A DNA stretch of 64,000 nt from Candidatus Bathyarchaeia archaeon (GTDB taxonomy: Bacteria > Patescibacteriota > Microgenomatia > PFEM01 > JAFGMK01). A program made the translations under genes and the position numbers. The stretch spans positions 317,904 through 381,903 of the forward strand of contig DATKWK010000035.1 of the NCBI GenBank assembly GCA_035529595.1, read 5' to 3'. Of the stretch, positions 7,315 to 52,454 are shown piece by piece (the first letter of the stretch is position 1; each line of letters begins with the position of its first letter). The notes below the pieces were generated by a model. That model was given only the letters and a program-made list of their open reading frames with translations. It did no database searches and was not told the origin of the DNA.

Positions 7315-9723
7315 TTACTGTTTACTTTCGGCGTCTTTAAGAGCCAGTTTAAAAACTTCATCCACGCTATTAACATAAACAAATTCTATGTCTTTCTTTA
7401 CTTTCTTGGGAACATCAACCAAGTCCTTCCGATTATCCTTTGGTAAGATCACCTTTTTTAAACCAGCGCGGTGGGCAGCAATTACTTTCTCTTTGATCCC
7501 GCCGATTTCCAAAACCTGACCTCTTAAAGTTACCTCGCCTGTCATACCTATTTCTCGATGAATTGGACGTCTGCTGAAGGCCGAATATAAGGCAGAAGCG
7601 ATGGCAATCCCTGCGGAAGGACCATCCTTGGCAATTGCCCCTTCCGGAACATGAATATGAATATCCAGATTTTGATAGAAGTCCTTATCCAGGCCTAATT
7701 TTTCCCAACGGCTGCGAATATAAGAAAAGGCAGCCTTACAAGATTCTTTCATTACTTTTCCCAATTTACCAGTAAGCAGCAAGCTCCCCTTTCCTGGCAT
7801 CAAAGCCACTTCAATGAAAAGAATGTCGCCACCCGTCTGGGTATAAGCAAGACCGGTAGCAATTCCGATTTCGTCACTTTTTTCAGCCAGAACGGGACTA
7901 AATTTAGGCGGGCCCAAAAATCTCTGCAAACGAGCTATTTTTACTACCCGGGGAGCGTTCTTATTCTCAGCTACTCTTCGGGCAAGTTTCCGGCAAATAG
8001 TGGCTAAATTTCTCTCCAGTTCCCTTACTCCCGCCTCCCGAGTGTAACGATTGATTATTTCCCTCAATACCGATCCGTCGATTGAAACATCCTTTTCTCC
8101 CAGGCCGTTAAACCTAAGCTGTTTTTTCCACAAGAATCTTTTAGCAATATAAAACTTTTCATCTTCGGTATAACCTGGAAAACGAATAACTTCCATTCGA
8201 TCCCTCAAGGCTGGCGGAATCGTATCAAGAACATTGGCCGTAGTAATAAACATTACCTTAGAGAGATCAAAGGGGACTTCAAGATAGTGATCGGAAAATT
8301 CAAAATTCTGTTCCGGATCCAAAGCCTCAAGTAAAGCTGCTGAAGGATCACCGCGAAAATCTGTCCCCACCTTATCAATCTCATCGAGCATAAACACCGG
8401 ATTATTGGTCCCGGCGTTTTTAATTCCTTGAATAATCCGCCCGGGCATTGCGCCGACATATGTTCGTCGGTGACCGCGAATTTCTGCTTCATCCCGAATC
8501 CCTCCCAAACTCATGCGAACAAACTCCCGATCCAGAGACCGGGCAATCGATTTTCCTATTGAGGTTTTACCTACCCCCGGAGGACCAACGAAACATAGAA
8601 TAGTCGGCCCACCAGCTTCTTTTCTCTTCTCTTTCTTTCTTTTTTCACCAACCTCCTCAGTTACTGATTTTTCCTTTAACTTCATCACCGCAAGATATTC
8701 GGCAATCCTTTCCTTAATTTTCTCTAAACCATAATGATCGGCATCAAGGATCTTTACTGCCTCAGCTATATCTGCCTGATTGGGGCTGGATTTAGACCAG
8801 GGTAATTCCACCAATAAATCAAGATAAGTCCGAATGTAACCCTTCTCCGGATGATAGGCCGGAAGACGCATTAATCTTGATAATTCTTTTTTTGCCTTCT
8901 TAGTAACTTTAACTGGCATCTTAGCGGCCTTAATTTTTGTCTTCAGCTCCTTAATTTCCTGATCATCCCCGTCCTCTTCGCCTAATTCTTTCTCGATTAT
9001 TTTCTTCCTTTCCCTTAACATCGCTTCTCTAACCGATTTATCGAATTTATCTTTGGTTTTAGAGGAAATGCTCTGTTCAAGCTTAAGAACCTTAATTTCG
9101 TGAGACAGGTATTCGGCCACTTTTTCCATTCGTTTTCTAACCGAGACCAATTCTAGAAGTTCCTGTTTTTCTTTTGTCTCAATCTCAAGAACCGAAGCGA
9201 CCTGGTCAACCAACTCATTCGGGCTAATATCTGCTCCAATCAGTCTCATTACTGCCATTAAATCAACCGATTTACCTAAATTGACTGCACGTTTAAAACT
9301 TCTTTTCAAATACTGAGCCAGCGCTCTAGTATCATCATCTTTAACCACCATTTCCGGCATTGGCTTAATTTTGACTTGAAAAAAAGGCTCATCTTGAACA
9401 AAGGCCTCGATTCTTACACGACCGATTCCTTTTATTAAAGCATTAACTGCCTCTTCTGAAGGAAAAAGACGAATCAGTTTGGCCAATGTTCCGACCTGAT
9501 ATAAGTCATCCTCAGTCGGATTATTTATCTGTGATCTCTTCTGAGTAACCAAACAAATAAGATTATCCTTTTTTGAAGCCGCTTCAACGGCAGTAACTGA
9601 TTTTGCCCGGCCAAAAGTTAAGGCCACTTCGGTATAGGGAAAAACAACTGCACCTCTAACCGGCACCAGCGGTATTATTTGACTTTCAATAATTTTTTTA
9701 CCTTGTTTAAGTAGTAGAGTCAT
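7315..9723 (-). CDS. lon: ATP-dependent Lon protease.
   Basis: 802 aa. N-terminal LON domain, AAA+ Walker A GPPGVGKTS, Walker B FMLDEID, and proteolytic Ser motif DGPSAGIAI with a downstream Lys (catalytic dyad). Confidence 0.95.
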   Translation of the reverse strand: MTLLLKQGKKIIESQIIPLVPVRGAVVFPYTEVALTFGRAKSVTAVEAASKKDNLICLVTQKRSQINNPTEDDLYQVGTLAKLIRLFPSEEAVNALIKGIGRVRIEAFVQDEPFFQVKIKPMPEMVVKDDDTRALAQYLKRSFKRAVNLGKSVDLMAVMRLIGADISPNELVDQVASVLEIETKEKQELLELVSVRKRMEKVAEYLSHEIKVLKLEQSISSKTKDKFDKSVREAMLRERKKIIEKELGEEDGDDQEIKELKTKIKAAKMPVKVTKKAKKELSRLMRLPAYHPEKGYIRTYLDLLVELPWSKSSPNQADIAEAVKILDADHYGLEKIKERIAEYLAVMKLKEKSVTEEVGEKRKKEKRKEAGGPTILCFVGPPGVGKTSIGKSIARSLDREFVRMSLGGIRDEAEIRGHRRTYVGAMPGRIIQGIKNAGTNNPVFMLDEIDKVGTDFRGDPSAALLEALDPEQNFEFSDHYLEVPFDLSKVMFITTANVLDTIPPALRDRMEVIRFPGYTEDEKFYIAKRFLWKKQLRFNGLGEKDVSIDGSVLREIINRYTREAGVRELERNLATICRKLARRVAENKNAPRVVKIARLQRFLGPPKFSPVLAEKSDEIGIATGLAYTQTGGDILFIEVALMPGKGSLLLTGKLGKVMKESCKAAFSYIRSRWEKLGLDKDFYQNLDIHIHVPEGAIAKDGPSAGIAIASALYSAFSRRPIHREIGMTGEVTLRGQVLEIGGIKEKVIAAHRAGLKKVILPKDNRKDLVDVPKKVKKDIEFVYVNSVDEVFKLALKDAESKQ

Positions 9724-13235: not shown

Positions 13236-14531
13236 TTATTCACGGGTTTGCTCGCTAAAATACCAATCAGGGCTTGAAGCATTTCCGACAAGCTTTTCTT
13301 TAATTCCGGTCTCCAGATGAAATTTCCATAACTCGTTCTTGCCGGCATTATCTTCAACGCTTAAAATTAGCCAATTTCCATCTGTACACCAATAATCGGT
13401 CCGATTGATCTTCAAACCTGTTTTTATCTTCTGAATCTTTCCTTCAGCCAATCTGACAATGATAATATCCTCCTCTTTTCCAACTTTAACATTTATTAAA
13501 CGGCCTTTTTGGTCGTCCAGTTTGCTGCCTGATAAATTCAGGTTTTCCGGTACCGGTTTTATTTTTTGGATATTGTTGGTACCAATATCCATTTGCCAAA
13601 ATGAATCTTCGGTCCAGAAAAATACTTTTTTTCCGTCATCAAACGGGGTGAGTGAAGAGGTAAAACGAATATCTTTAGTTAAAAAAACCGGGTCTTTCTC
13701 ACCTAAATCGGCCAGTACTGCTGCAGAATTCTCAAGTATCGGTGGTTGATTGACATATTTTACGTATAAAAACTCGTTCTCAGTCAACCAAACGGGTTTT
13801 TCGGGCCATTTTCCGGGTGGGCCAGGATCTTCAAAAACTTGTTCACTACCATCGTCAATATCTATAACGACAATAACAACTTCACTATTTTTTAAACCAA
13901 AAAGGGCGATTTTTTTTGAATCCGGAGACCAGGAAATATCATTCGGAATAAGAATGGCCGTTGTTAAAAGTTCGCGATAACCTGATCCGTCAGCACGCAC
14001 CAGTCTGACCTGGTTTTTAACATCACCATAAAGCAAACAATTCCCTTGGATGATTTGTTTCTTCGTTTTTTCGTCTACCGATAGATAGGCAAGCCATCTT
14101 CCGTCGGGTGAGAAAGTCGGCCGATCATTAGTCCCTTCCGTGGTTAGTTTTTGTTCCCTCGAACCATCGGCGTTAATTATCCAAATATCCCGTTCACCGC
14201 GACAAATATCTCCCCTGACAAAAGTAATCTGACCCTCGATTTCCTCTACCGAAGAAACAACGGAAGGTAAATTAGTGGGAGAAAGAAGCACCCGGGTTTC
14301 CTGGACCGAAGGGGATGGAGATAATAAGTCCTTCCCGGAGATATTTTTTGCGTCATTGGAACCGTATTTGCGTGATCCGACAGCAAAAAAAACGGCAGTT
14401 GACAGAACAAAAAAAACGGCCAAAATTAAAAACAAACTTTTATGCTTATCAAGCTTGCTGAATGACGGACTAGAGGAGGCAACGACGATTGGTTTCTGCT
14501 CTACAAGCTCTTTTTGATTTTGATTTTCCAT
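13236..14531 (-). CDS. TolB-like beta-propeller protein with an N-terminal TM anchor.
   Basis: TM helix LFLILAVFFVLSTAVFFAV. Repeated TolB-type blades (DGSREQKLTTEGTNDRPTFSPDGRWLAYLS; SWSPDSKKIALFG). Confidence 0.7.
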   Translation of the reverse strand: MENQNQKELVEQKPIVVASSSPSFSKLDKHKSLFLILAVFFVLSTAVFFAVGSRKYGSNDAKNISGKDLLSPSPSVQETRVLLSPTNLPSVVSSVEEIEGQITFVRGDICRGERDIWIINADGSREQKLTTEGTNDRPTFSPDGRWLAYLSVDEKTKKQIIQGNCLLYGDVKNQVRLVRADGSGYRELLTTAILIPNDISWSPDSKKIALFGLKNSEVVIVVIDIDDGSEQVFEDPGPPGKWPEKPVWLTENEFLYVKYVNQPPILENSAAVLADLGEKDPVFLTKDIRFTSSLTPFDDGKKVFFWTEDSFWQMDIGTNNIQKIKPVPENLNLSGSKLDDQKGRLINVKVGKEEDIIIVRLAEGKIQKIKTGLKINRTDYWCTDGNWLILSVEDNAGKNELWKFHLETGIKEKLVGNASSPDWYFSEQTRE

Positions 14532-14676
14532 TTCTCTATTTTTTCAGTATAGCATAGAGAACTTAAACCGGCCGAAAGGCGAAAGATTTATCAAGAGCAA
14601 AATAATCAGGTAGACTATTCCCCATACTCTTCACCAACAAATACTGTTTGAGACTGTTGAATATCGTTTTCCGGTT

Positions 14677-14768
14677 TGTCATCCTGAGCGCAGCCGAAGG
14701 ATCTAGCGTTAGCGCAAATACGGTCCGGTTTAATCGGACCTAGATTCTTCACTTCGTTCAGAATAACA
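14677..14768. repeat. Imperfect palindromic element of about 92 bp (family B-pal, copy 1).
   Basis: tgtcatcctgagcgcagccgaaggatctagcg ... ggtccgg/ccggacc centre ... ctagattcttcacttcgttcagaataaca. The arms are imperfect reverse complements. The left arm matches the reverse complement of the right arm of the 38484-38580 element (aaggaatctagcgtaagcgc). Confidence 0.6.
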
Positions 14769-14800
14769 CGGAGTTATTCAACACTCTCACCGTTTACTTA

Positions 14801-23469: not shown

Positions 23470-23736
23470 TTAACTGTATATTTCTTTTCTATGTCCGATT
23501 CTTAAAATAACAATCCTGCTCTTATCGATATCAAAAACAACACGATACTTTCCTATTCGCCAACGATATGATCCCAAAGAGGGCTTTATTAACTTTCTGG
23601 CATAAAAATAGGGTTTTTGGGAATAAAGCTCGATTTTCTTTTTGATTTTTTTCTTGACCACACGATCAAGTTTTTGAATATCTTTGACAGCGGTTTTTGT
23701 GTAAAGAAGATTAAATTTCGCCGAAAACTTGCTCAT
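23470..23736 (-). CDS. RelE/ParE-family type II toxin.
   Basis: 88 aa. C-terminal YRVVFDIDKSRIVILRIGHRKEIY is the typical RelE/ParE pattern. Overlaps the upstream antitoxin gene by 26 nt. Confidence 0.75.
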   Translation of the reverse strand: MSKFSAKFNLLYTKTAVKDIQKLDRVVKKKIKKKIELYSQKPYFYARKLIKPSLGSYRWRIGKYRVVFDIDKSRIVILRIGHRKEIYS

Positions 23737-23959
23737 GAGTAAATATTTCTCTTTTTTTATATTCTTTCCTTGCCTTTTTAATACTATTTAAATACTTTTT
23801 GTTGGCTAAAGCGAGTAAATCTTCAAACAATTCAATACTTACAAGTGCAGAACTAATTTCACCCCTTTTGGATACGAGTAAATAGTCTCTTTTTTTAGAA
23901 ACCTCATCAATGACATCAGCTAAATTATTTCTTAACGTAGTCGTACTAACAATATTCAT
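23711..23959 (-). CDS. Phd/YefM-family antitoxin.
   Basis: 82 aa. The opening TLRNNLADVIDEVSKKRDYLLVSKRGEISSALVSIELFEDLL is the classic Phd/YefM N-terminus. Confidence 0.8.
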   Translation of the reverse strand: MNIVSTTTLRNNLADVIDEVSKKRDYLLVSKRGEISSALVSIELFEDLLALANKKYLNSIKKARKEYKKREIFTHEQVFGEI

Positions 23960-24077
23960 GTTAGTTTTAACTTAACATTTAAAACGTACATTGTCAATTA
24001 TCAAAAGAATTCCAATCCTTTAATTTGCTATATGGTACAAGAATTAAAGCAACTGGAAAGTGTAAAACATTGAATTT

Positions 24078-26883: not shown

Positions 26884-28254
26884 TTAATAGTGAACTATCT
26901 GTCTTAATAATCGTTTGTGAAACTCGGTGATACGCTCATCGATCAAAATATCATTACGCCATATTCTTTTGGTCAAAATTATCCCCTCTAAACTCCGGCA
27001 CCGGCTCAGGGCGACATAAGTTTGGCCATGGGCAAAGGGCGACCGGCTGAAATCAACACAAACTTTATCCAGAGACATGCCCTGGCTTTTATGAACGGTA
27101 ATCGCCCAGGCTAGCCGGAGCGGATATTGTTTCAGTTTGCCGATGACTTTTTCCACGAGCCCTCCGGTTTCCTGATTATATTCGTATTCGATGTTGTCCC
27201 ACTCGTTGATATCGACCGCCACAATTTTTTTGGTTTCATTAATTTTGACCTCGATTAAATCCTCAGCCAACTCGTCAACCTTACCCAATGTCCCGTTTAC
27301 CCACCGTCTACCCGGATCGTTTTTGACAAATAAAACTCTCGCCCCTTTCTTAAGCTTTAATTCCAAATCAACCGGCAAATTCCGGTTCTCGGTCGGAAAG
27401 TCGCCCTCGATCGCCGCCTGGTAAACAAACAACGGCTTTTTTATCTTGTCGAGTTTTCTTTGATTAATTGCCTCGGCGGTTTTATTGACCGTGCATAAAA
27501 CAATATGGCTCCCGGGCGGTTGTTTGGCCGTTACTCTTTGATTAATTAAACTGAAAGTATCAGCAGAGACGTCACCCGATCTAACCTGGTTAAGGAATTC
27601 AATAAAATGAAGTTCCTTTTGCCGGAAAATTGTTTTTAGCTCAATCACATTAAAATCGTCCAGTTCAAAAGAATTGGCGCTGAAAAAATAGGGAGAATCA
27701 TAAAGCTGGCTATAGGTCGAGATATCCTGATAGGTAATCACCGGCGGCAGCTGGTATAAATCGCCGACGATAACTACTTGAATACCCCCAAACGGCAATC
27801 TTTCGTCCCGGCCATTAAGTCTTAAAAAACGGTCAACACCGTCAAACAGATCCGCCCTGACCATGGAGATCTCATCAATCACCAGGCAGTCCAAATCGGC
27901 AAAGATTCGCTTTCCGGTCCTCCTGATGGCTTTCGGTTCAATTAACCGGGGAGGAAAACCGAAAAATGAGTGGATTGTTTGCCCGCGGATATTTAAAGCG
28001 GCAATTCCGGTTGGTGCCAGGACGACCACTTTCTTTTTGGTCTGGTTACGGAAGTATTGGATCAGCATCGACTTGCCGGTCCCGGCTTTACCAATGATAA
28101 AGAGATTTTGGTTGGTATTCTCCAAGATCTCCAAGCACTTTTTATGTTCCTCCGTTAAGACATAGGCATTGTCTCTTTTAAACTTATTCAGAATCTTTTT
28201 AAAGATTTTGGGTTGGCTCATGTTTGTGTTTTCTTCATGTTTTAAAGTATACAC
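26884..28254 (-). CDS. PIF1/RecD-family SF1 DNA helicase. The start may instead be the internal ATG at 28221-28223.
   Basis: Walker A IIGKAGTGKSMLI, Walker B LVIDEISMV, and helicase motifs through the C-terminus (VHKSQGMSLD). The 28254 start is a GTG that overlaps a repeat element. Confidence 0.85.
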   Translation of the reverse strand: MYTLKHEENTNMSQPKIFKKILNKFKRDNAYVLTEEHKKCLEILENTNQNLFIIGKAGTGKSMLIQYFRNQTKKKVVVLAPTGIAALNIRGQTIHSFFGFPPRLIEPKAIRRTGKRIFADLDCLVIDEISMVRADLFDGVDRFLRLNGRDERLPFGGIQVVIVGDLYQLPPVITYQDISTYSQLYDSPYFFSANSFELDDFNVIELKTIFRQKELHFIEFLNQVRSGDVSADTFSLINQRVTAKQPPGSHIVLCTVNKTAEAINQRKLDKIKKPLFVYQAAIEGDFPTENRNLPVDLELKLKKGARVLFVKNDPGRRWVNGTLGKVDELAEDLIEVKINETKKIVAVDINEWDNIEYEYNQETGGLVEKVIGKLKQYPLRLAWAITVHKSQGMSLDKVCVDFSRSPFAHGQTYVALSRCRSLEGIILTKRIWRNDILIDERITEFHKRLLRQIVHY

Positions 28255-28369
28255 CAGAATTATCGGCTGTAGGCTGGATACTTTTTTAAATCAGGAGAAG
28301 GAAAAAGTTAAAAAAGGTAATTGAAGAAAATTTTACCGAGGTGCAATGGAAAAAGTACCTTGAAGGTGG
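28239..28369. repeat. Composite palindromic element, family A-pal (core GTTTTAAAGTATACACCAGAATTATCGGCTGTAGGCTGGATAC ... right end GTACCTTGAAGGTGG).
   Basis: Shares the AAGTATACACC..TCGGC core and the ACCTTGAAGGTGG hairpin end with copies at 32014, 33645, 37291, 38390 and 42316. Confidence 0.6.
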
Positions 28370-28581
28370 TTGCCTTATTTCAATCGGCAGCCCAAATTAC
28401 TAATGTTTTATGGTCACTTTCATTTACGAGTTTGATAATTTGTTTATCCATGCTCGTAACTGCTAATTTTGGACTTTCCATCTTATTTTTTGCCGGCTAA
28501 ACGTACTTTCTATAAAAAATTATATCAGTGTTAATAACTTTGAAGTAAAAAAGGGGATCTCGGGCTTAGATGATTTTAGAA

Positions 28582-29121
28582 CTAACTTTTTATCTTGCTA
28601 AGTTTTTCTTTGGCGATCTCAAATACTGGCTGGTGGTGAAATTTTACTTGTATGTTGTCATCAAGTTTAAGACTGACCATCGGAAACATCGGCTGATTCA
28701 TTTTACTTTTATCCCAAGCTAAGTGAGGGTATTTTTGGGTAAAAGATTCAAAGTCTTCGTCAATAATAAATTCCGCATGTTCTAATGCCGACGGGCAAAC
28801 TTGTTCTTCTTTTGGAGCGATTAATTCTAAGGCAGTAATAGAGTAGTTTTTATAAAACAGGGGTTGTTTGAGCATGAAAAGTCCAACCCGCCGGCCGCCA
28901 ACTAAGTTTTCGTCTAAAAAGTCTCCTTCTTTTTGTAACTCTTGTTTTAACTGGTCATAGTCCTCATTCGAGGAAGCCTGGTAACCAAGATGGTCCATTT
29001 CATACTGAGAAATATCGATACCAACCTCGTTTAGTTTTTGAAAGAAAAAGTTTAAGAAAGTAGTCTGGTCAAGTTTAATCATAGTGATGATTTTAACACC
29101 GGCGTGCCAAGGGTAAAACAA
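28582..29121 (-). CDS. Hypothetical protein. Its N-terminal third is duplicated at 33146-33408.
   Basis: 179 aa. Nucleotides 28836-29100 are near-identical to 33146-33400. Confidence 0.5.
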   Translation of the reverse strand: MFYPWHAGVKIITMIKLDQTTFLNFFFQKLNEVGIDISQYEMDHLGYQASSNEDYDQLKQELQKEGDFLDENLVGGRRVGLFMLKQPLFYKNYSITALELIAPKEEQVCPSALEHAEFIIDEDFESFTQKYPHLAWDKSKMNQPMFPMVSLKLDDNIQVKFHHQPVFEIAKEKLSKIKS

Positions 29122-30174: not shown

Positions 30175-30852
30175 TTAAAAGAGGATATCTTCCTGAGCAC
30201 CCCTTGGCTTTTGAGTACAAATCCGGTAATAACACCATTTGCAACTATCAGGATTTTCAGGCGGGGGAGGGCCGTTTAATAACTTTGAAACTTCGGAAAT
30301 GAAGGCATAAAACCGATCCATATCTTCGGCAATTTCAAACCACTGGGGTTTGGCTTTAAAAATCACGTCTTCAGCCGGAAATGAAATTTCTTCGGGATTA
30401 ATCGCAATGATTCCCATTTTACTGACCTTTTTGGGTTCTCCAAAATCAGGATTTTCTAATGCGAACTTGTAGGCGTGAAGTTGGGCAAAGAATCTCTGAA
30501 TCTTGTCTTCCGTCGGGTCAGTAATTTTAAAATCAATTACGGAATAAGTTCCGTCTTCAAGGCGGGAAATAAAATCAAACCTGCCGCCGATATAACAATC
30601 ATTGGCCGGCGGAATGGGTTTTGATTTTAGGAAACCTTCTTTTACCTCGACCTTTCCGGCCGGAAGAAGCGAATTAATTTCTCTTAAATCCATGCCGATA
30701 ATTGCATTTTGCAAAAGTGAATTCATTTTTGTAAAAACACCGGGCATGCCGATTGAAGGCAATTCTTTAATTAAGCCTTTTGCTTTCTGGTAATAGCAAT
30801 GCTTGCAATCCTCGTATAAATACTTGAAATCCGAAGGAGATAATTTGTACAT
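30175..30852 (-). CDS. Cas4/RecB-like PD-(D/E)xK nuclease-family protein with 4 Cys (putative Fe-S); orphan.
   Basis: N-terminal C-x2-C... (DCKHCYY). Central D...VIDFKITD (D/ExK). C-terminal CKWCYYRIC. This is the Cas4/DUF83 arrangement of Cys around a PD-(D/E)xK core. No CRISPR array or cas1/cas2 nearby. Confidence 0.55.
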   Translation of the reverse strand: MYKLSPSDFKYLYEDCKHCYYQKAKGLIKELPSIGMPGVFTKMNSLLQNAIIGMDLREINSLLPAGKVEVKEGFLKSKPIPPANDCYIGGRFDFISRLEDGTYSVIDFKITDPTEDKIQRFFAQLHAYKFALENPDFGEPKKVSKMGIIAINPEEISFPAEDVIFKAKPQWFEIAEDMDRFYAFISEVSKLLNGPPPPENPDSCKWCYYRICTQKPRGAQEDILF

Positions 30853-31073: not shown

Positions 31074-31220
31074 TTACACGTTAAGGTGTCTTAGATAAAA
31101 AAAGCTTTCTGGTAAAAATCCGTTTAACTTCCTGGGGTGTTTACAACCCTGAGCGAATTATAATCCTGAGTGAAATCGAAGGAGTCGAGGTGTCAAGGAT
31201 AAAACACCTTTAAGGTGTAT
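31074..31220. repeat. A-pal family element with a B-pal-like interior (..CCTGAGCG..ATCCTGAGTG..CGAAGGAG..).
   Basis: Left end ACACGTTAAGGTGTCTTAGATA. Right end GAGGTGTCAAGGATAAAACACCTTTAAGGTGTAT. The interior carries CCTGAGCG/ATCCTGAG/GAAGGAG motifs reminiscent of the 14677 and 38484 palindromes. Confidence 0.5.
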
Positions 31221-32013: not shown

Positions 32014-32108
32014 CTTATTAATTACACCTTCAAGATGCCTTAGATATGATTCTTCTTGTTTTAAGTATACACCCAAATTATCGGTTGCAAGTTTTAGGGA
32101 AGACACCT
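32014..32108. repeat. A-pal family element, complete copy.
   Basis: ACACCTTCAAGATGCCTTAGATATGATTCTTCTTGTTTTAAGTATACACCCAAATTATCGGTTGCAAGTTTTAGGGAAGACACCTTGAGGGTGTAG. Confidence 0.6.
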
Positions 32109-32178
32109 TGAGGGTGTAGTAGGCTAGCTCCGTAAGAAATGCCCTGCGAGACAGACAACGTTTAGCCTTTTTTAAAAG

Positions 32179-33030: not shown

Positions 33031-33145
33031 AATTTACCGATATTGATTGCTCCCAGGTGGGGCTCAGACTTCAAAAAAATTAGGTTTATAAAATAAAACA
33101 ATGTCAATCCTTATGGGATTAGATTTTTAGATAGTTGTTGAAGCT

Positions 33146-33408
33146 TAATTCCAAGGCAGTAATAGAGTAGTTTTTATAAAACAGGGGTTGTTTGAGTCTG
33201 AAAAGTCTCCTTCTTTTTGTAACTCTTGTTTTAACTGGTCATAGTCCTCATTCGAGGAAGCCTGGTAACCAAGATGATCCATTTCATACTGAGAAATATC
33301 GATACCAACCTCGTTTAGTTTTTGGAAGAAAGAGTTTAAGAAAGTAGTCTGGTCAAGTTTAATCATAGTGATGATTTTAACACCGGCGGCGCTCCAAAGG
33401 AAAGACAC
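33146..33408 (-). pseudogene. Truncated duplicate of the 5' third of gene 28582-29121.
   Basis: About 250 nt near-identical to 28836-29100, with a 45-nt internal deletion. The ORF ends after 87 aa with unrelated residues. Confidence 0.6.
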
Positions 33409-33644
33409 CTTGAAGGTGGTTAACTACCTATTAAAAATAAGGGTAATCTCTACCAAATACCTTTTACTTCAAGATAGATAATTGAAACAATCATCATCAC
33501 AATCATAAAAAGAAAAATATATATAAATCTGGCCTTTTTATTGCGCGGTAGTTTTAAGTAACCCTCTTTAGTAATCAAAGGCGAAAAAACCTTGTGCAAA
33601 ATTTTAATTAAAAAATTTTCCATGCCGGCAATCCTTTTATGATT

Positions 33645-33722
33645 ACACTTTTAAAGTGTCTCAGATTAGCCACTTCTTGTTAAGTATACACCAAAGTTCT
33701 CGGCCGTAAGCTTGATGTTTTC
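33645..33722. repeat. A-pal family element (left hairpin plus core).
   Basis: ACACTTTTAAAGTGTCTCAGATTAGCCACTTCTTGTTAAGTATACACCAAAGTTCTCGGCCGTAAGCTTGATGTTTTC. A right-end-type hairpin (GACACCTTGAAGGTGG) lies at 33398-33424. Confidence 0.55.
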
Positions 33723-34347
33723 AAAAATATCAGCATTAAAGTATCTATCGAGATTTTAAACAGAGTTCTGATTAAATGATGCAAAGGCACTAAGTTCTGA
33801 TACAAAAATTGATAATAAGCCGTTTCTCTGGTGTCGGGATTGGGAACAACCGCTTCCGCAGTTAACTCAGAATACCGATAAAACTATAAAATTCAAACTT
33901 CCGTTTCCATAAAAATCTACCAGCTGATATAATTTGTTGTAAGATTCAAGGTTATCTTTTCTGAAAGTAGAAAATTCCTTAACCTTGGAATTGAAGAAAG
34001 CACTGACACTAAAATTATTCTAATCGGTAAGAAAGTCTGACTGCATATCTTAATCGATTATGACCGAAGATAGATCAACCCAAGAAACCAAATCAAAACC
34101 CCCGACACCTGAGGATATAAAAGAAGCCTACCATTAGCACCAACTATTTAAAGATGGCTGGCTAACTGCCCATGAATTATCAGAACTAAAACCAGGAGAT
34201 AAACCCGGTTCAACTGGCGAAGTTTTTAAGGTCGAGACCAAAAGTCTTCGGGCAATAAAAGCAATTCTCGACAGAGACTTACCCGATGACGAATTTCGAG
34301 CCGGACTGGAAGAAATAAGATCGTTACTACCCCGGCCCTTTGAGAAA

Positions 34348-37190: not shown

Positions 37191-37290
37191 GATTTATATT
37201 ATATTTTAAAAATAATTTTTGAGCAATATTGAATATTTTTTATCTGGCTTTATCAGTAATTTTCTTCATATTCAATAAATCTATAGAATT

Positions 37291-37384
37291 ACACCTTCAG
37301 GGTGTCTCAGATATGGCACTTCTTGTTAAGTATACACCAAAATTACCGGCCGTAAGCTTGAGGGAAGACACTTTGAAGGTACAG
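37291..37384. repeat. A-pal family element, complete copy.
   Basis: ACACCTTCAGGGTGTCTCAGATATGGCACTTCTTGTTAAGTATACACCAAAATTACCGGCCGTAAGCTTGAGGGAAGACACTTTGAAGGT. Confidence 0.6.
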
Positions 37385-37400
37385 TTAGCCGGTTTTATTT

Positions 37401-38366
37401 TCACCTTTGCTGGTTAACAGCTGAAAGAAAATCATATAACTGTCGTTCTGCTGCAATTGACTCCTGATCCCATATTCGATTTTCTCTTCTAATTGGTTCT
37501 TCAAATTTTCTGGAAAGTTCTACAAATTTTTTAATTCCCCCTTGTTCTCTAAATGCTGATGCCATTAATTTAAATGGTAACGAATAATACTCAGCAGAAA
37601 AATATCCTGACTGTAATATTGCTAAAATATCTTCCTCGGTAACCCCGTTTTCAGTAATTTCTTTGTCAATAATTCCTGCTCTTCTAGCTGTATCAATAAC
37701 ATCCCTTGCTCCCCCCTTGGCACAATAGTCAGTTAAGCACATAATCAAGGATCCAAGCATTCGCGTTTCCGTCATATAGCCAGAACCAATCGAAAAACTG
37801 ATTCGATTTACTGAGCCAGGGTCCTTATTGATTAACTGAGATTGTTGTACCAGCCCTGATTCTATTAGGACTTGTCTTGTCGTGACTTCGGTTATAGCCT
37901 CCTTGAACCATAATAAACTCCATTCTTTCGATTTTTGACTATATACTTCACCCATTTTAACTGGAACATTATCTTGAACGGCTCTTAGTCCAGCATCATG
38001 TACCTTCTCGTGAGCATACTCTTCTGCAAAATCGCTATCCACGGCAATCTGAATCACTCCATCGTAGTCGCAGAACCCTGCACTCCCAATCCATCGTACA
38101 TATCCTAAGACAATTTGATCCTCATTAAACTGACCAACCGAGACCCCAAACTTTCGAAATATTCTATTCATACCCTCATTGATTATTATTCCTTGCCTAC
38201 ATTGTTCTTTAGTTAACTTTAATTTATTGGGATCTCCATTTTCGGCCAGGGCTCTATTAGAATATTCAGCCCTTTTTTGTTGTGCAGAATAGATACCACG
38301 TTGAGAAAATACATGTACTCGAAGATCAATGTCTTGGTGCGTTGGCTCTTCTGCTATATTATCCAT
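37401..38366 (-). CDS. Hypothetical protein.
   Basis: 321-aa ORF flanked on both sides by A-pal elements. No motif recognised. Confidence 0.45.
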   Translation of the reverse strand: MDNIAEEPTHQDIDLRVHVFSQRGIYSAQQKRAEYSNRALAENGDPNKLKLTKEQCRQGIIINEGMNRIFRKFGVSVGQFNEDQIVLGYVRWIGSAGFCDYDGVIQIAVDSDFAEEYAHEKVHDAGLRAVQDNVPVKMGEVYSQKSKEWSLLWFKEAITEVTTRQVLIESGLVQQSQLINKDPGSVNRISFSIGSGYMTETRMLGSLIMCLTDYCAKGGARDVIDTARRAGIIDKEITENGVTEEDILAILQSGYFSAEYYSLPFKLMASAFREQGGIKKFVELSRKFEEPIRRENRIWDQESIAAERQLYDFLSAVNQQR

Positions 38367-38389
38367 GCTCTGGTAATTTATATATTTGG

Positions 38390-38663
38390 TACACCTTCAA
38401 AATGTCTCAGATTAGACACTTCTTTTATAAGTATACACCAAAATTCTCGGCCGAAAGCTTGATATTTTCACAAATTTTGCATCCTTGTCATCCTAATCCC
38501 GACTTTAGGTCGTGGAGAAGGATCCAGCGAAGCCAAGTCTGACTTGGCGAAGCGCTTACGCTAGATTCCTTGGAATGACAATAGAGTCTTGAAATAGGTT
38601 CTGATTTTTTTAAATCAGTAGAAAAAGTACCAAGGTGTCAAGGGAAAGACACCTTGAAGGTGT
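38390..38663. repeat. A-pal family element carrying a nested B-pal palindrome.
   Basis: Left ACACCTTCAAAATGTCTCAGATTAGACACTTCTTTTATAAGTATACACCAAAATTCTCGGCCGAAAGCTTGA. Right ...AAAAAGTACCAAGGTGTCAAGGGAAAGACACCTTGAAGGTGTT. Interior 38484-38580 is the second B-pal palindrome. Confidence 0.6.
38484..38580. repeat. Imperfect palindromic element, family B-pal, copy 2 (TTGTCATCC...GGAATGACAA), nested in an A-pal element.
   Basis: Terminal arms ttgtcatcc / ggaatgacaa are exact reverse complements. The interior gaaggatccagcgaagccaagtc-tgac-ttggcgaagcgcttacgctagattcc is palindromic. Its right arm matches copy 1 (14677-14768) in reverse orientation. Confidence 0.6.
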
Positions 38664-38747
38664 TAAATGGGGCGCTAAATGACAGTTTGATAATTAAATC
38701 TCGAAAGCTAAGGACTTCGAATAGTTACCTATGATATTATAAATATT

Positions 38748-41700
38748 GTGAATGAAAAAATTTTAAGCAAGAAACGTTTTCTTAAATTTCTTTTTTTTGC
38801 TTGGTTGTTCTTTGCTTTTTTAATCCGTCGCAATGGTTCCTGGCTAAAAATAGGAACTACAGAAACCACCCAGGCTAAATCTCCAGCTAATTCTTTTCCT
38901 ATTTCTTCTTATCGTTACCTGCCAGGAGAAATAATCGTCAAATTTAAAAAAGAACCTCTTTTAAAATCACAAGGGCTGGAGCTTAGTGAAGCAACTCAGT
39001 TTTCTTCGGTTAACTCAATTCTCGAAAAATCTCCCGTTAGGAATATTCAACCGCTTTTCGATACTAAACAAGGTGAACTAAAAAAAATAGTCAAAATAAA
39101 ATTAGAATCTGACCAGAAGGCAATTAATCGTCCCTTTGGTATCGAGAGCAATTTTTTTATCGGGGAACCCTCGGAAGAAAAGCGGCTAATTTCAAAATTA
39201 AAAGAAGACCCTAATGTTGAATATGCTGAGCCGAACTATCTTTATCAAACCAGCCTAACTCCTGATGATCCTTTTTTGGATCAGCAATGGGGCTTAACTC
39301 AAATCCAGTCTCAGGAAGGTTGGGATATTAATACCGGAAGCATAGACATGGCTATCGCTATTATTGACACTGGTATTGATTATTCTCACGAGGATCTAGG
39401 AGACCGAATCTGGCAGAATATTGATGAGATCCCAGGCAATGGGATAGATGATGATTTAAACGGATTCACCGATGATATTGCCGGTTGGGATTTTGTTAAT
39501 ACTGAAAATGCTCTTTGCTCGACTGACGAGGACTGTCAAATAGAAGACAATGACCCCAGTGATAAATTAGGTCACGGAACCCATGTTGCCGGTATTGTTA
39601 ATGCAACTACTAATAACAGTACAGGGATAGCCGGCATCTGTTGGACTGGAAAAATCATGAACATTAGAGCCGGCTGGAAAGGAAATGATGGAAGCGGGTA
39701 TTTGGATACGGAAGCAATTAGTAAAGCGATTGTATACGCTGTCGACAACAAGGCCGACCTTATTAATATGAGCTTTGGCTCAGACGACTTTTCAGAGACA
39801 ATAGCAAACAGTTTAAGCTATGCTAATGATAATCATGTCTTAATGATTGCCTCAGCCGGAAACTCAGGTCTTGAAATCAGCAGTTTTCCCGCTAGCTCAC
39901 CTCATGTTTTTTCAATTGGGGCTACTGATAAATCAGATCAAAAAACCTTTTTTTCTAATTATGGCACTACAATAGATTTAGCCGCACCCGGAATAGATAT
40001 CTTGTCTCTTCGTGCTGAGGGAACGGATATGTACGGAGACGGCCAGCATATCGTTGAGGAAAAGTACTATCTCGCTTCGGGAACATCAATGTCTGCTCCT
40101 TTTGTCAGCGGAGTCTTCGGTTTAGTAAAAGCACTTCATCCCTCTTGGGATAAAAAGGAGTTTGAAAAAATGACTAAACTTGCCGTCGATCCTTTAAGCT
40201 CAAACTTTTATGTTGGCCATGGAAGGATTAACCTTTATAAAGCCCTTTCAATCACCCTCCCCGAAGCAGAAGCTTTTCTGAGATATCCCTACGAAAAAAG
40301 TTATTTCCTTTTATCAATCGGTGAACCCCTGGAAATCAGGGGGGTGGTTGTCGGCGAAAGTTTCAAAATTGAATACGAAGAGGGTTATTACCCCGATCAA
40401 TGGGTTGAAATACACCGTCAAGACGCTCCTATTGATACCGGACCAAACGGCGCCAGTTTGACAACCTGGAACACGACTAATTTAAAAGAGAAAATTTATA
40501 CTCTTAAATTAACCGCTTATGATGTGCAAGGACTATCCATTTACTCTTATGCTTTTGTTGAATTCTACGACCCCAGTTTAGGCTGGTTTAAAAGGCTGAG
40601 CAATGATTATTCTTCTGCCCCAAATGTCGCGGACCTCCATAATAATGGCCAAAAAGAGATTATTGTCACTAGTGCCCAAGAGACATTTGAAAATGGTTTA
40701 AATCTTTATATTTTTGGTCCGGAGGGCAACAACTTCCTTCCGGCGAACCCAATTATTTTAGAGGGCGGTTACGGGGCTTCTTCTTCTCCTGCCGTCGGGG
40801 ACATGGACAGCGATGGCAATTTGGAGATTGTCGTCGCGGGAGAAAACGTATACGATACCCCCTTCAGTAGCGAAGGAATTATCTATATTATCAGAAATAA
40901 TGGCAATCCCCTGACTGGCTGGAATCCAAAAAAAGTATCAGACGAAATCTCTCTCGAATCACGTTGGTGTCAAGGTTGGGGAAATGACCGACCTTGCGGC
41001 GGGTTCCCTTCTTCGCCGGTTCTAGCGGATTTAAACAACGACGGCAATCTGGAGATCATTCTTCTCAGCCGATATGGTAAACTTTATGTCTTCGAGATTA
41101 ACGGCAATAGTCTTCCCGGTTTTCCTCTGCTTCTAGGTGAAGGCTTCTGGTTTGGAAATACGTTTAACACTCCGGCAGTTGGCGACCTTGATAATGACGG
41201 TCGTCCTGAAATCGTTGTCGCTCTTGGAGAAAATAATCAACCTGAGGAAGGTACTTTTATTTACGTTGTCGAAAGTGATGGCACTATTGCCCCAGGCTGG
41301 CCTAAGAAAATTATCGGTGATAATACCTCTTACACTTATTACAGTTCTCTTTTTTCTTCACCAGTAATAGGCGATATAAACAAAGATCGACAAATGGAAA
41401 TCTTTATTAGTTCATGGAACGAAGAAGGCGGCAGAATTAACGGCTGGAACTACAACGGTGAGCCAGTCAACAATTGGCCTGTCTCTGCTCCTGGTGTTAT
41501 ATGGAATGTCTCACTCGGAAGTATTCAGGCTGAAACCGACACTCTGATTTTAGCCGGGGCTTACGATATGCAACATCAAGCGGCCTACGCTATCTCTTCC
41601 CAAGGAAATCTCCTTCCCGGTTGGCCGCCTCAAAATTCTCCCCGAAGCATCAGCGCCCAACCTTTAATAGTTGATATTGACCAGGAAGACGATCAAGAAT

Positions 41701-42146
41701 TAATCTTTGTTTCTGCTTACGATTCCTCCGCCTATGCTTATAAGTCCTCGGGCCAAAATGTAGAAAACTGGCCGATTCAAATCCGTCAGCCAACTTATCG
41801 TACCCCGACGATCGAAGACATCGACTCAAACGGTACCCTGGAAATAGTCACTGTCAGTATCGAGGGTAACCTTTACCTTAAAAGACTGATCGGAACTGCT
41901 CCGAAAGCCTACTCATGGAACACTTTTCATCATGACAGGCAACATACCGGTGCCTATACTTTCGAAGGTTGTTCCCCCGGCGATTCTAACCAAGATAAAA
42001 AAATCGATCTTTTAGACTTCATGTGTATTTTTCAAAATTATCGAGAGGCTAGTGAAAGTAGCTGCCCTTGCTCTGACAGCAACCTGGATTCGGTCGTTAA
42101 CTCTATCGATCTTGGTTTTGTCCTAAATAAATATCGACTTCAATAA
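38748..42146 (+). CDS. Secreted subtilisin-like serine protease (S8) with I9-like propeptide, FG-GAP/VCBS beta-propeller repeats and a C-terminal dockerin-like module.
   Basis: N-terminal TM/signal. Catalytic triad motifs AIIDTGID (Asp), HGTHVAG (His), GTSMSAPFVSG (Ser). At least 6 repeats of the type DMDSDGNLEIVV / DLNNDGNLEIIL / DLDNDGRPEIVV (FG-GAP). C-terminal paired Ca-binding segments GDSNQDKKIDLLDF and SDSNLDSVVNSIDLGF (dockerin type I pattern). Confidence 0.85.
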   Translation: MNEKILSKKRFLKFLFFAWLFFAFLIRRNGSWLKIGTTETTQAKSPANSFPISSYRYLPGEIIVKFKKEPLLKSQGLELSEATQFSSVNSILEKSPVRNIQPLFDTKQGELKKIVKIKLESDQKAINRPFGIESNFFIGEPSEEKRLISKLKEDPNVEYAEPNYLYQTSLTPDDPFLDQQWGLTQIQSQEGWDINTGSIDMAIAIIDTGIDYSHEDLGDRIWQNIDEIPGNGIDDDLNGFTDDIAGWDFVNTENALCSTDEDCQIEDNDPSDKLGHGTHVAGIVNATTNNSTGIAGICWTGKIMNIRAGWKGNDGSGYLDTEAISKAIVYAVDNKADLINMSFGSDDFSETIANSLSYANDNHVLMIASAGNSGLEISSFPASSPHVFSIGATDKSDQKTFFSNYGTTIDLAAPGIDILSLRAEGTDMYGDGQHIVEEKYYLASGTSMSAPFVSGVFGLVKALHPSWDKKEFEKMTKLAVDPLSSNFYVGHGRINLYKALSITLPEAEAFLRYPYEKSYFLLSIGEPLEIRGVVVGESFKIEYEEGYYPDQWVEIHRQDAPIDTGPNGASLTTWNTTNLKEKIYTLKLTAYDVQGLSIYSYAFVEFYDPSLGWFKRLSNDYSSAPNVADLHNNGQKEIIVTSAQETFENGLNLYIFGPEGNNFLPANPIILEGGYGASSSPAVGDMDSDGNLEIVVAGENVYDTPFSSEGIIYIIRNNGNPLTGWNPKKVSDEISLESRWCQGWGNDRPCGGFPSSPVLADLNNDGNLEIILLSRYGKLYVFEINGNSLPGFPLLLGEGFWFGNTFNTPAVGDLDNDGRPEIVVALGENNQPEEGTFIYVVESDGTIAPGWPKKIIGDNTSYTYYSSLFSSPVIGDINKDRQMEIFISSWNEEGGRINGWNYNGEPVNNWPVSAPGVIWNVSLGSIQAETDTLILAGAYDMQHQAAYAISSQGNLLPGWPPQNSPRSISAQPLIVDIDQEDDQELIFVSAYDSSAYAYKSSGQNVENWPIQIRQPTYRTPTIEDIDSNGTLEIVTVSIEGNLYLKRLIGTAPKAYSWNTFHHDRQHTGAYTFEGCSPGDSNQDKKIDLLDFMCIFQNYREASESSCPCSDSNLDSVVNSIDLGFVLNKYRLQ

Positions 42147-42315
42147 ACTTCCCCTCTGACTTCCATCTTATTGGATATTGCGAATATTACTAAGTGATAC
42201 TTTTACCTTATTCTTGATGATTTTTTTCCCGGATATTGCCTTTTTAGCTCTTTGATTACTTTATCAACATATATATTAAAAAAATAGGACTTTAAAAAAA
42301 TATTCTATTTGCTGT

Positions 42316-42403
42316 TTAAATCAAAAACAGTGAAAAGGCAAAAAGGGCAATTGGAGAAAAAAAATTCACCGAGGTTCAATGGGAAAAGTACCTTGAAGGT
42401 GGT
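42316..42403. repeat. A-pal family right-end element (TTTAAATCAA..GAAAAGGCAA..TTCACCGAGGTTCAATGGGAAAAGTACCTTGAAGGTGG).
   Basis: About 75% identical over about 80 nt to 28290-28369. Directly abuts the stop of the 42413 gene. Confidence 0.55.
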
Positions 42404-42412
42404 TACCTTTAT

Positions 42413-51387: not shown

Positions 51388-52290
51388 TTAACGAAACATT
51401 TCAATCGCTAGGACTGTATCTTTCACATCAAGGTAGGCTATCATACAACCACATCGGCTACAGTCAATTGTTACTTTCTTTTGATCGGGGCTTCCCATCT
51501 GGCAAGGATAAAGCTTTTTACCCTCGAAATTTAAATTTAATCGCGTTTTAAATTTAGCACTGCATTTTTTGATCCATTTGCCGGCCTGTCTTGAACTCAT
51601 CTTTTGCAAAATTCTTTCGCTATTCCAGGGCATAAACTTAGGTCTTTTTAATCTAAGAGTTTTTAATTTGTCAATCACTCTGTCTCTCTCGCTGAAGGTG
51701 AGGCACAAAGTGTCATCTTCACCTTTTTGGGGAGTATAAAAGTCATAGATTACACCCGCTACTTCAGTTTCAGACCATTCCTTATAAAAGTCTTCAATGT
51801 TATCTTTGTTTTCTTTGCTAATAGTCATAAGTATGTATATTTTTAAACCCTTGGCGGCCCCATCCAGGATGTTTTTTTTGATTAAATCATACTGTTTGCC
51901 GTTGAAACCATTGCCTCTGATTTTTTCGTGGTATTTTTTGGTTCCGTCAACTGAAACACCAAAGGTGACATCTTTCCAATCCGGCAAAGGAATGGTTCCG
52001 TTTGTAATTATCATGTTTACAGGAAAGTATTTTTTTCCAATTTTAATTAGATCTTGTCTAAGTAATGGCTCGCCTCCCACATAGGCCATTGATATGGTCC
52101 CTTGTTTAATCAAACTTCTGAACACTTTTATCCATTTGTCTTCTGGCAAGTCTTGGCTTTTAGAGTTTTTCCTGAAGCAATGTAGGCAATTCAGGTTGCA
52201 CTTATTAGTTACTTCCATTCCCACGGATTTTATTTTTCCAAAAGACAAGACAGATAACTTAATAATCTTTAAAAAACTTTTTACTCTCAT
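51388..52290 (-). CDS. Radical SAM enzyme with a C-terminal Cys-rich (SPASM/twitch-like) region.
   Basis: EVTNKCNLNCLHCF (CxxxCxxC). GGEPLL glycine-rich SAM motif. C-terminal C..C..CSRCGC cysteines. Confidence 0.7.
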   Translation of the reverse strand: MRVKSFLKIIKLSVLSFGKIKSVGMEVTNKCNLNCLHCFRKNSKSQDLPEDKWIKVFRSLIKQGTISMAYVGGEPLLRQDLIKIGKKYFPVNMIITNGTIPLPDWKDVTFGVSVDGTKKYHEKIRGNGFNGKQYDLIKKNILDGAAKGLKIYILMTISKENKDNIEDFYKEWSETEVAGVIYDFYTPQKGEDDTLCLTFSERDRVIDKLKTLRLKRPKFMPWNSERILQKMSSRQAGKWIKKCSAKFKTRLNLNFEGKKLYPCQMGSPDQKKVTIDCSRCGCMIAYLDVKDTVLAIEMFR

Positions 52291-52416
52291 ATTTCTAAAA
52301 TATACTAAATTAACTTCAATTGTAATATTAAACTGACTTTTCCAGTGCCGTTTTATTTCTTACCTAGCCTTCGATACTAAATATACCTCAAACCAATCTG
52401 AAGGAAACTCTGATTA

Positions 52417-52452
52417 CCAAGGTGTCAAGGGTGAGACACCTTAAAGGTGTAT
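52417..52452. repeat. A-pal family right-end hairpin (CCAAGGTGTCAAGGGTGAGACACCTTAAAGGTGTAT).
   Basis: Near-identical in form to 38627-38663 (CCAAGGTGTCAAGGGAAAGACACCTTGAAGGTGTT). Confidence 0.55.
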
Positions 52453-52454
52453 TT

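Follow-up and report, generated by a model that had tools for sequence, protein, structure and literature searches.

The stretch of DNA analysed here (hereafter, the window) comprises 64,000 nucleotides of contig DATKWK010000035.1 (assembly GCA_035529595.1, positions 317,904 to 381,903 of the forward strand) and contains two copies of a palindromic element that we refer to as B-pal. The window is also contained in JGI contig Ga0307378_10000010. Both copies lie where the initial annotation had placed them, copy 1 at 14677-14768 and copy 2 at 38484-38580, and both occupy gaps between genes. Copy 1 is located in a 344-nt gap, with a PD40/Tricorn-like gene (13236-14531, minus strand) on one side and a gene starting at 14876 on the other, and copy 2 in a 381-nt gap between genes at 37401-38366 (minus strand) and 38748-42146 (plus strand). 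The source contig was also lengthened by ~9 kb on each side of the window, giving ~82.6 kb examined in total. In this extension a covariance model, R1 (described below), found a third copy beyond the window's right end, at a distance of 0.7-0.9 kb, adding a member to the repeat family that had been proposed from two copies.

Anatomy and setting of the B-pal copies

Each copy consists of a head-to-head pair of ~25-nt hairpin modules of the form (T/C)GTC-AT..stem..AT-C, arranged around a variable centre, and the window contains four such modules only (1L, 1R, 2L, and 2R). Module 1L (TGTCATCCTGAGCGCAGCcGAAGGATCT, 14677-14704, plus strand) reads TGTC-ATCCT-GA-GC-GCA-GC(c)-GA-AGGAT-CT, that is, a TGTC tag, a stem ATCCT/AGGAT, a tandem GA/GA, a GC-GCA-GC mini-hairpin, and a 3' C-T. 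Except for a 1-nt insertion (an extra C), it is the same as a pan-bacterial 25-mer that is described in the next section. Module 1R (TGTTATTCTGAACGAAGTGAAGAATCT, 14743-14768, minus strand) reads TGTT-ATTCT-GA-AC-GAA-GT-GA-AGAAT-CT on its own strand; the GTC of its tag is mutated to GTT, an inner G-C pair is changed to A-T in a compensatory manner, and a 24-nt stretch of the module is exactly matched in a Chloroflexota locus (L077).

The modules of copy 2 are more altered in their inner parts. Module 2L (TGTCATCCT-[23-nt own hairpin]-AAGGATCC, 38486-38525, plus strand) keeps the TGTC tag, the ATCCT/AGGAT stem, and the 3' C, with the inner loop swapped for a 23-nt insert that has a hairpin of its own; an expanded-loop module resembling it is present in a Patescibacteria locus (L117). 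Judged by sequence, 2L is a putative family member on the grounds of its tag, stem, and tail, together with its link to copy 1. Module 2R (TGTCATTCC-AA-GGAATCT, 38564-38580, minus strand) keeps the tag, the outer stem, and the 3' C, and its inner hairpin is deleted. The third copy (positions 8291-8437 of the extension sequence, L284) has a CGTC-tagged left module (3L) with an enlarged inner hairpin still framed by GA..GA, a central hairpin as in copy 1, and a degenerate right module. Among the five modules that can be read, tag and 3' C are what survives, while loops are replaced or deleted: the tag reads TGTCAT in 1L, 2L, and 2R, CGTCAT in 3L, and, mutated, TGTTAT in 1R, and a C directly follows the palindrome in all five (1L, 1R, 2L, 2R, and 3L).

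Between the modules, copy 1 has a spacer arm (CTAGCGTTAGCGC, 14703-14715, plus strand) whose inverted counterpart in copy 2 is CTAGCGTAAGCGC (38552-38564, minus strand), as indicated by alignment of the shared arm and by a pattern that links it to the module. As the initial annotation had noticed, this arm is common to both copies in opposite orientation, with 18 of 20 positions identical (GGATCTAGCGTTAGCGC vs. GAATCTAGCGTAAGCGC). The linked pattern, GTCATYC-N(0-30)-GRATCTAGCGTWAGCGC, has exactly two matches in the window and none in 100 shuffles. The central hairpin of copy 1 (GGTCCGGTTTAATCGGACC, 14722-14740), supported by folding and alignment, is homologous to GTCCGATTAAATCGGAC of copy 3, and folding places a central hairpin of copy 2 at 38532-38548 (GCCAAGTCTGACTTGGC).

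B-pal was originally described as an imperfect palindrome of ~95 nt. The repeat is indeed palindromic, but it is composed of two inverted hairpin modules and a variable centre rather than being a single plain palindrome, and the length does not hold for copy 1. The latter measures 141 nt (14649-14789), as it is bounded by a further 15-nt outer inverted repeat, TGAGA[C/G]TGTTGAATA, the left arm of which (TGAGACTGTTGAATA, 14649-14663, plus strand) matches exactly and the right arm of which (TGAGAGTGTTGAATA, 14775-14789, minus strand) has one mismatch to the left. The same arms flank copy 3, and copy 2 is without them. Since copies 1 and 3 share this outer repeat, the unit copied in this genome is ~140 nt long.

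The long-hairpin folding that had been predicted for both copies was confirmed, with predicted structures far better than those of shuffled sequence on either strand, in RNA and in DNA folding alike. Compared with shuffled sequence, z-scores ranged from -3.2 to -5.1 for RNA folding of both copies and from -2.4 to -4.7 for DNA folding of 104-107-nt stretches; copy 2 (38485-38581) and the 141-nt copy 1, folded as DNA, gave -4.6 and -5.3, respectively. Folding is equally good on the two strands, as is expected of a DNA palindrome.

Copy 2 was also reported to be nested in an element of another repeat family, A-pal. This is correct in that the variable interior of an A-pal unit contains copy 2, with "inserted" to be taken as a descriptive term that has no clean empty-site comparator: because the other A-pal copies are too diverged, comparing copy 2 with them yielded no definable insertion boundaries. 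The A-pal family occupies positions 25029-52450 of the window, where at least 10 copies share the hairpin end GGTGTCAAGGGAAAGACACCTTGAAGGTGT and several have in common a left arm ACACCTTCAA..TGTCTCAGAT..AAGTATACACCAAAATT..CGGCCGTAAGCTTGA, with interiors of 0 to ~150 nt (e.g., 28196-28390, 32015-32130, 33635-33800, 37280-37395, 38380-38675, 42230-42420, and 52290-52460). The degenerate B-pal fragments that the initial annotation had seen near 31.1 kb, in another A-pal unit, are at chance level; the best match, a possible decayed module (TCCTGAGTGAAATCGAAGGA, 31164-31183, plus strand), has no GTC tag and scores a non-significant 9.0 bits with R1 (E 4.7).

Three independent Logan assemblies of the same organism stop inside copy 1 or copy 3: position 1 of L002 corresponds to ~14735 of the window, in copy 1, and position 1 of both L285 and L286 to position 8343 of L284, in copy 3. 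These contig ends fit repeats or hairpins that break the assembly graph, and they hint at more genomic copies than three. The copies in hand are old and partly decayed.

With respect to gene order, the genes on either side of each of the three copies are transcribed divergently. Gaps of this type make up 6 of the ~74 gaps and ~25% of the intergenic bases, so that finding three of three copies there has a probability of ~0.016 by length; seen from the gaps, three of the six sampled carry a copy. Only one good promoter-like site was found, downstream of copy 1 and directed at the next gene. Such a setting could be taken to mean that B-pal copies are cruciform or protein-binding sites kept by the host at divergent promoters, acting as sinks of negative supercoiling or as sites for nucleoid proteins, independently of any nuclease. 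The repetitive extragenic palindromes (REPs) of Escherichia coli and the mosaic elements built from them (BIMEs) do bind gyrase and the integration host factor IHF. Against this idea, there are three observations only, long AT-rich divergent gaps are also the most permissive to insertions, and the copies are diverged and partly decayed (mutated tag in 1R, lost loops in copy 2), which argues against strong selection on the whole structure. We consider it improbable as the explanation of B-pal; it is compatible with the interpretation of the copies as nuclease-associated hairpin motifs developed below, and it offers no alternative for their origin.

The hairpin module in other genomes and in viral contigs

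The covariance model R1 was built from 63 unique modules, all from organisms other than the one studied here. In the window, it recovers 1R (14739-14771, minus strand; 38.8 bits, E 8.6e-8), 1L (14674-14707, plus strand; 37.9 bits, E 1.5e-7), 2R (38560-38583, minus strand; 16.5 bits, E 0.053), and 2L (38486-38528, plus strand; 7.9 bits, E 9), and on the contig extension it detects copy 3 (L284 8309-8350; 25 bits, E 2e-4). Copy 1 is thus a firm member of the module family.

The family is found far beyond this genome. An exact match to the 25-mer GTCATCCTGAGCGNAGCGAAGGATC is present in 64 IMG/VR viral-contig stretches and, among GTDB species genomes, in at least 120 stretches from more than 12 bacterial phyla; the matches listed include Acidobacteriota, Chloroflexota, Bacteroidota, Bacillota, Planctomycetota, Verrucomicrobiota, Gemmatimonadota, Nitrospirota, Omnitrophota, Pseudomonadota, Saccharibacteria, and other Patescibacteria. 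About half of the external modules among these matches form convergent inverted pairs, which is the architecture of B-pal, and 76 unique convergent pairs were collected, with lengths of 61-476 nt and a median of ~83 nt. A T precedes GTCAT in ~85% of the external modules.

The conserved secondary structure and covariation that would be expected of a genuine structured family are evident in these external modules. In the alignment of the 63 hairpins, 97% of the cells are paired and double (compensatory) changes occur in six of seven pairs; 53 compensated cells were observed vs. 11 expected, a number reached by none of 500 shuffles. Almost no variation is seen in the unpaired GTC tag, in the tandem GA/GA, or in the triloop's G..A, nor in the 3' C, whose column (C29) is invariant; the middle base of the loop is free. 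The inner unit, GC-GNA-GC, has the sequence of the unusually stable DNA mini-hairpin d(GCGNAGC).

Structure of this kind raises the question of whether B-pal acts as RNA, be it as a structured small RNA gene, as the initial annotation had suggested, a cis-regulatory RNA, or a terminator hairpin. The predicted folds are strong on both strands, and transcription of REPs is frequent in other bacteria, where they can stabilise the 3' ends of mRNAs (Di Nocera, De Gregorio and Rocco, BMC Genomics 2013; PMC3733652). Nevertheless, a scan of the whole window against Rfam at gathering thresholds gave zero matches, relaxed scans of copy 1 and of the canonical element gave only chance-level or generic microRNA-hairpin matches, and a scan for tRNA and tmRNA found no genes. 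There is no terminator-like run of Ts at copy 1 or copy 2, and the three copies lie between divergent genes, upstream of promoters, and not after genes. The equal folding of both strands is what a DNA palindrome would give, and the conserved tandem G.A and GNA triloop fit d(GCGNAGC), a known ultra-stable DNA mini-hairpin. Moreover, SsnA, the Neisseria nuclease that recognises a related motif, binds and cuts it as single-stranded DNA (ssDNA) and fails to bind it as RNA (Chenal et al., Nat Commun 2025; PMC11893778). An RNA function therefore appears very unlikely.

In several lineages, the palindrome extends 7-18 nt beyond the modules, for example with CCCCACCCT directly before TGTCAT and AGGGTGGGG directly after ATGACA (L128, L170, L072, L156, and L083 from Chloroflexota; L068 from Saccharibacteria), and in L083 one module pair is nested within another. 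As composite and nested palindromes recur in several lineages, they are not special to this window. The canonical element had one weak match among plasmids, and the 17-mer spacer arm gave chance matches only when compared with viral contigs.

In the viral contigs (L003-L066), the 25-mer often occurs as inverted pairs between ordinary phage genes such as those for capsid, portal, and terminase. Pfam enrichment of the 129 open reading frames (ORFs) adjoining modules in these contigs returned ordinary phage structural genes only and no mobility enzyme, and no relatives of GIY-YIG proteins were found in the viral contigs. If a host Ssn nuclease cuts such sites in ssDNA, phages bearing the 25-mer would be exposed to it, or might be mimicking the host.

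Association with GIY-YIG genes and a proposed mechanism

The longest module pairs, in L128 (398 nt) and L157 (476 nt), enclose an ORF of ~95 amino acids that consists of a GIY-YIG domain alone (PF01541). Within 1.3 Mb of module-centred loci there are four GIY-YIG ORFs, and all four lie 50 nt or less from a module; no other cargo between module pairs, distant pairs included, is recurrent. The association was also examined in reverse, using 80 metagenomic loci picked solely by similarity of their GIY-YIG proteins. R1 matches at E <= 0.01 were found in 79 of these 80 loci, and a simple hairpin rule placed a tagged hairpin within 200 nt of the gene in 56, with hairpins on both sides in 25. In each of six records, from plasmids or chromosomes (Planktothrix, Spirosoma, Rhizobium, Azospirillum, Novosphingobium, and Neisseria), GTC-tagged hairpins bracket the ssn-type gene, and the stem and loop of these hairpins vary by lineage.

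By sequence, the recovered GIY-YIG proteins are homologues of Neisseria SsnA. The N. gonorrhoeae orthologue (L272), a protein of 94 amino acids with Y6, Y17, and E64 and with NTS repeats on its flanks, is 46.6% identical to the L128 protein (E 2e-25), and the nearest solved structures of the recovered proteins are those of UPF0213 proteins. In Azospirillum lipoferum 4B (L191), a block of ~530 nt with the order REP dimer-ssn-REP dimer lies between sufB and sufC. The block is absent in A. ramasamyi, Azospirillum sp. B510, and A. argentinense (L274-L276), whose flanks are 90-97% identical, and the composite is therefore a presence/absence polymorphism. A link between CGTC-type REPs and GIY-YIG genes was at one point considered to be new, an idea that was dropped as the link is already contained in the work of Chenal et al. 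(2025).

These results also bear on whether B-pal is a classical MITE (miniature inverted-repeat transposable element), that is, a ~140-nt composite with the ends TGAGA[C/G]TGTTGAATA moved by a DDE-type or other transposase encoded elsewhere, with the Ssn-type hairpins as passengers or as an earlier insertion. The outer inverted repeat and the order of the inner parts are common to copies 1 and 3, GTAA stands on both sides of copy 3, and the palindromic extensions past the modules in other lineages (L128, L170, L072, and L068) could be read in the same way. On the other side, no target-site duplication was seen in the flanks of copy 1, the outer repeat is missing from copy 2 and is not above chance level elsewhere in the window, and the inner modules are the sole parts with relatives outside this genome. 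No cognate transposase with matching terminal inverted repeats, for which the initial annotation had suggested looking, is present among the genes of the ~82.6 kb; the partner enzyme of the family is the GIY-YIG Ssn. We therefore regard a transposase-driven MITE as unlikely. Of the MITE-like mobile entity that had been proposed, there stands the short, gene-less inverted-repeat element, in a family that also has gene-carrying forms; mobility of B-pal itself would be conjecture, as neither an empty site nor a clear target-site duplication was found.

The motif recognised by Ssn nucleases is known in some detail. In N. meningitidis, SsnA, a GIY-YIG protein of 94 amino acids, binds the NTS hairpin CGTCATTCCCGCGMAVGCGGGAATCYRG solely as ssDNA and cuts a few nucleotides upstream of it, with neither RNA nor double-stranded DNA serving as a substrate (PMC11893778). 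The three nucleotides preceding the palindrome are important for cleavage, and for binding the most critical base is the C that follows it. Conservation among the B-pal modules falls on these same critical positions, the tag and the 3' C, a pattern that supports the assignment of B-pal to this class. Homologues (cd10448) occur across bacteria, 71% of them flanked by Ssn-related motifs (SRM), the NTS-ssnA-NTS layout has been likened to an insertion sequence, and the Neisseria Ssn/NTS pair restrains natural transformation (Chenal et al., 2025).

Overall, we consider it likely that B-pal is made up of two Ssn-related hairpin motifs joined head to head, with no gene of its own; such motifs are the same as the CGTC/TGTC-tagged REPs. 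The copies belong to this repeat class, they have its hairpin structure, and in other organisms the modules are associated with ssn genes; that an Ssn acts on the B-pal copies of this genome, and has spread them, is what we infer by analogy. The observation is thus genuine, and it is mostly explained by known biology, as the repeat class is known to be the target of Ssn nucleases.

If B-pal works in this manner, each module would be an orientation-specific ssDNA hairpin with an unpaired 5' (T/C)GTC tag, a stem opening with A-T and T-A, and a C directly 3' of it, to which the canonical module would add the tandem G.A/G.A step and the GC-GNA-GC mini-hairpin. Owing to the inversion of the modules, there is one "sense" site on each DNA strand, and the whole element could extrude as a long hairpin or cruciform. 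By analogy with the Neisseria system, a single-domain GIY-YIG Ssn of ~95 amino acids would bind the folded module in ssDNA arising in replication, repair, or DNA uptake, making contact through the stem and the 3' C, and would then nick a few nucleotides 5' of the tag; the predicted nicks would fall just outside B-pal on either side. The repeats are likely to stem from, or to be spread by, the module-ssn-module form, and B-pal would be its non-autonomous relative.

The assignment allows two so far unexplained palindromes to be recognised as belonging to a repeat class whose partner enzyme is known, and it has some practical bearing, given that hairpins of this kind produce spurious ORFs and break assemblies, as in the three Logan contigs that end in copies. 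Each pair of module and enzyme would be a candidate for a new ssDNA-cutting specificity. Bacteria of the candidate phyla radiation have tiny genomes and depend on DNA uptake. The subtype is noteworthy for its presence in a Patescibacteria (Microgenomates-group) genome and in phage contigs, and for its local form, a ~140-nt composite; the picture of how such repeats work is unchanged by B-pal.

Several other features of the window are worth recording. A segment of ~250-280 nt is duplicated at 28821-29104 and 33145-33388, 4.3 kb apart and with 95-97% identity, and one Logan contig stops at its second copy. A PIF1-like helicase and a PD-(D/E)XK nuclease-family protein (26884-28254 and 30175-30852) are encoded within the A-pal-rich stretch, and a ParE/Phd toxin-antitoxin pair lies at ~23470-23960 (L001 18595-19084). 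The Lon protease encoded at 7315-9723 (L001 2440-4848, minus strand) has its nearest relatives, 61-73% identical, in Pacebacteria, Shapirobacteria, Beckwithbacteria, and other Patescibacteria of the Microgenomates group. An identical Lon protein is recorded on an NCBI contig named "Candidatus Bathyarchaeia archaeon", which may be a near-complete genome of the candidate phyla radiation, and as all close homologues are from Patescibacteria, this public label looks like a mislabel.

Comparison with published repeat classes

B-pal resembles SRM in the 5' HGTC-W-Y tag (present in 1L, 2L, 2R, and 3L and not in 1R), in being an orientation-specific hairpin repeat, imperfectly palindromic over 20-50 nt and followed directly by a C on the 3' side, and, at the level of the module type, in the frequent inverted pairs and in the bracketing of single-domain GIY-YIG genes of ~95 amino acids (cd10448) in other organisms. 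By contrast, its stem is broken by the tandem G.A and closed by a GNA triloop, where SRM have an uninterrupted 8-9-bp stem and a 4-5-nt loop, its host is a small-genome Patescibacterium, its copies lie in divergent promoter regions, and no ssn gene was found near them.

The CGTC-tagged REPs are defined by an unpaired CGTC tag or its TGTC or CCTC variants, an 8-9-bp stem with A-T and T-A as its first two pairs, a 4-5-nt loop, and a 3-nt tail (CCA) (PMC3733652). They form families of tens to thousands of copies per genome, mostly as head-to-head dimers with spacers of 20-100 bp that often have complementary ends or small stem-loops. They are known from five phyla, mostly from Alphaproteobacteria, and include the Neisseria dRS3 and the Rickettsia RPE-4/-6 repeats; they "apparently lack a dedicated transposase" and never flank genes for REP-associated transposases (RAYT) (Di Nocera et al., 2013). 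B-pal shares the unpaired tag, the stem opening with A-T and then T-A, the short 3' tail, the head-to-head dimers with spacers of this kind (all three local copies are such dimers), the intergenic location, and the lack of association with a transposase. The B-pal subtype differs in its distribution, with more than 12 phyla among the matches listed, as well as viral contigs, against the five phyla published. B-pal, then, works like an SRM or CGTC-REP dimer and is a variant of that kind, not a textbook member.

A number of observations weigh against this interpretation. The five modules and the 25-mer GTCATCCTGAGCGNAGCGAAGGATC all fail the published SRM pattern, HGTCWYN(0-2)YYVSBRHN(0-5)WNVSBRGN(0-2)RNCYNB, which has zero matches in the window. 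The module itself departs from the CGTC-REP definition, with 5 bp, GA/GA, and 2 bp in place of a continuous stem, a 3-nt or replaced loop, and a CTA/CCA tail, and the copies occupy divergent gaps, whereas REP copies favour convergent or co-directional ones (PMC3733652). Only three copies are present in the ~82.6 kb, and copy 2, with its weak E-values of 0.05 and 9, is decayed and owes its place in the family mainly to its link with copy 1. Neither a tblastn search of the window nor inspection of the called genes in the window and ~9 kb on each side revealed an ssn or GIY-YIG gene. In addition, relatives outside this genome are confined to the inner modules, the spacers being lineage-specific, and the outer 15-nt inverted repeat could point to a different mobilising activity. 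Lastly, the expansion of repeats by NTS-ssnA-NTS is a hypothesis even for Neisseria (Chenal et al., 2025).

With regard to the pattern, the whole CCTGAGCGNAGCGAAGG subtype falls outside it, and the NTS, Azospirillum, and Rhizobium modules match it. Because the most widely distributed module that we found is missed, current censuses probably undercount the system. With low confidence, we also entertain a more specific possibility, namely that the B-pal subtype (GTC tag, tandem G.A, and GC-GNA-GC) is a distinct Ssn-motif lineage that spreads horizontally and is missed by the SRM pattern, and whose orphan copies persist at divergent promoters through use in trans or through co-option. The copies may be used in trans by an Ssn whose gene lies elsewhere in the genome, in a partner, or in a phage, and may mark ssDNA for it in uptake or replication; otherwise, they may have been co-opted as cruciform or supercoiling elements.

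The other system of similar design is that of the REPINs (pairs of inverted REPs) and their RAYTs. In the system described by Bertels and Rainey (2011; PMC3116915), a REPIN comprises two inverted REP hairpins and a spacer, forms a long hairpin of ~100 nt, and is non-autonomous, as is B-pal; as in the class to which we assign B-pal, the gene of the partner enzyme is itself flanked by repeats, and the enzyme recognises a folded single strand. This shared design is what could be said for B-pal being a REPIN of the GTAG-REP/RAYT type, moved by a Y1 (IS200-like) REP-associated transposase. That possibility is nonetheless the most remote of those considered here. The tag of B-pal is (T/C)GTC and not GTAG, CGTC-type REPs never flank RAYT genes (PMC3733652), no Y1 transposase or RAYT is present among the annotated genes of the ~82.6 kb, and the recurrent cargo between module pairs is GIY-YIG only. 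The two systems differ not only in the tag but also in the fold of the enzyme, HUH/Y1 in one case and GIY-YIG in the other, and in their mode of inheritance: RAYT-REPIN systems are lineage-specific and vertically inherited, whereas the 25-mer of the B-pal type is near-identical across phyla and is carried in phage contigs.

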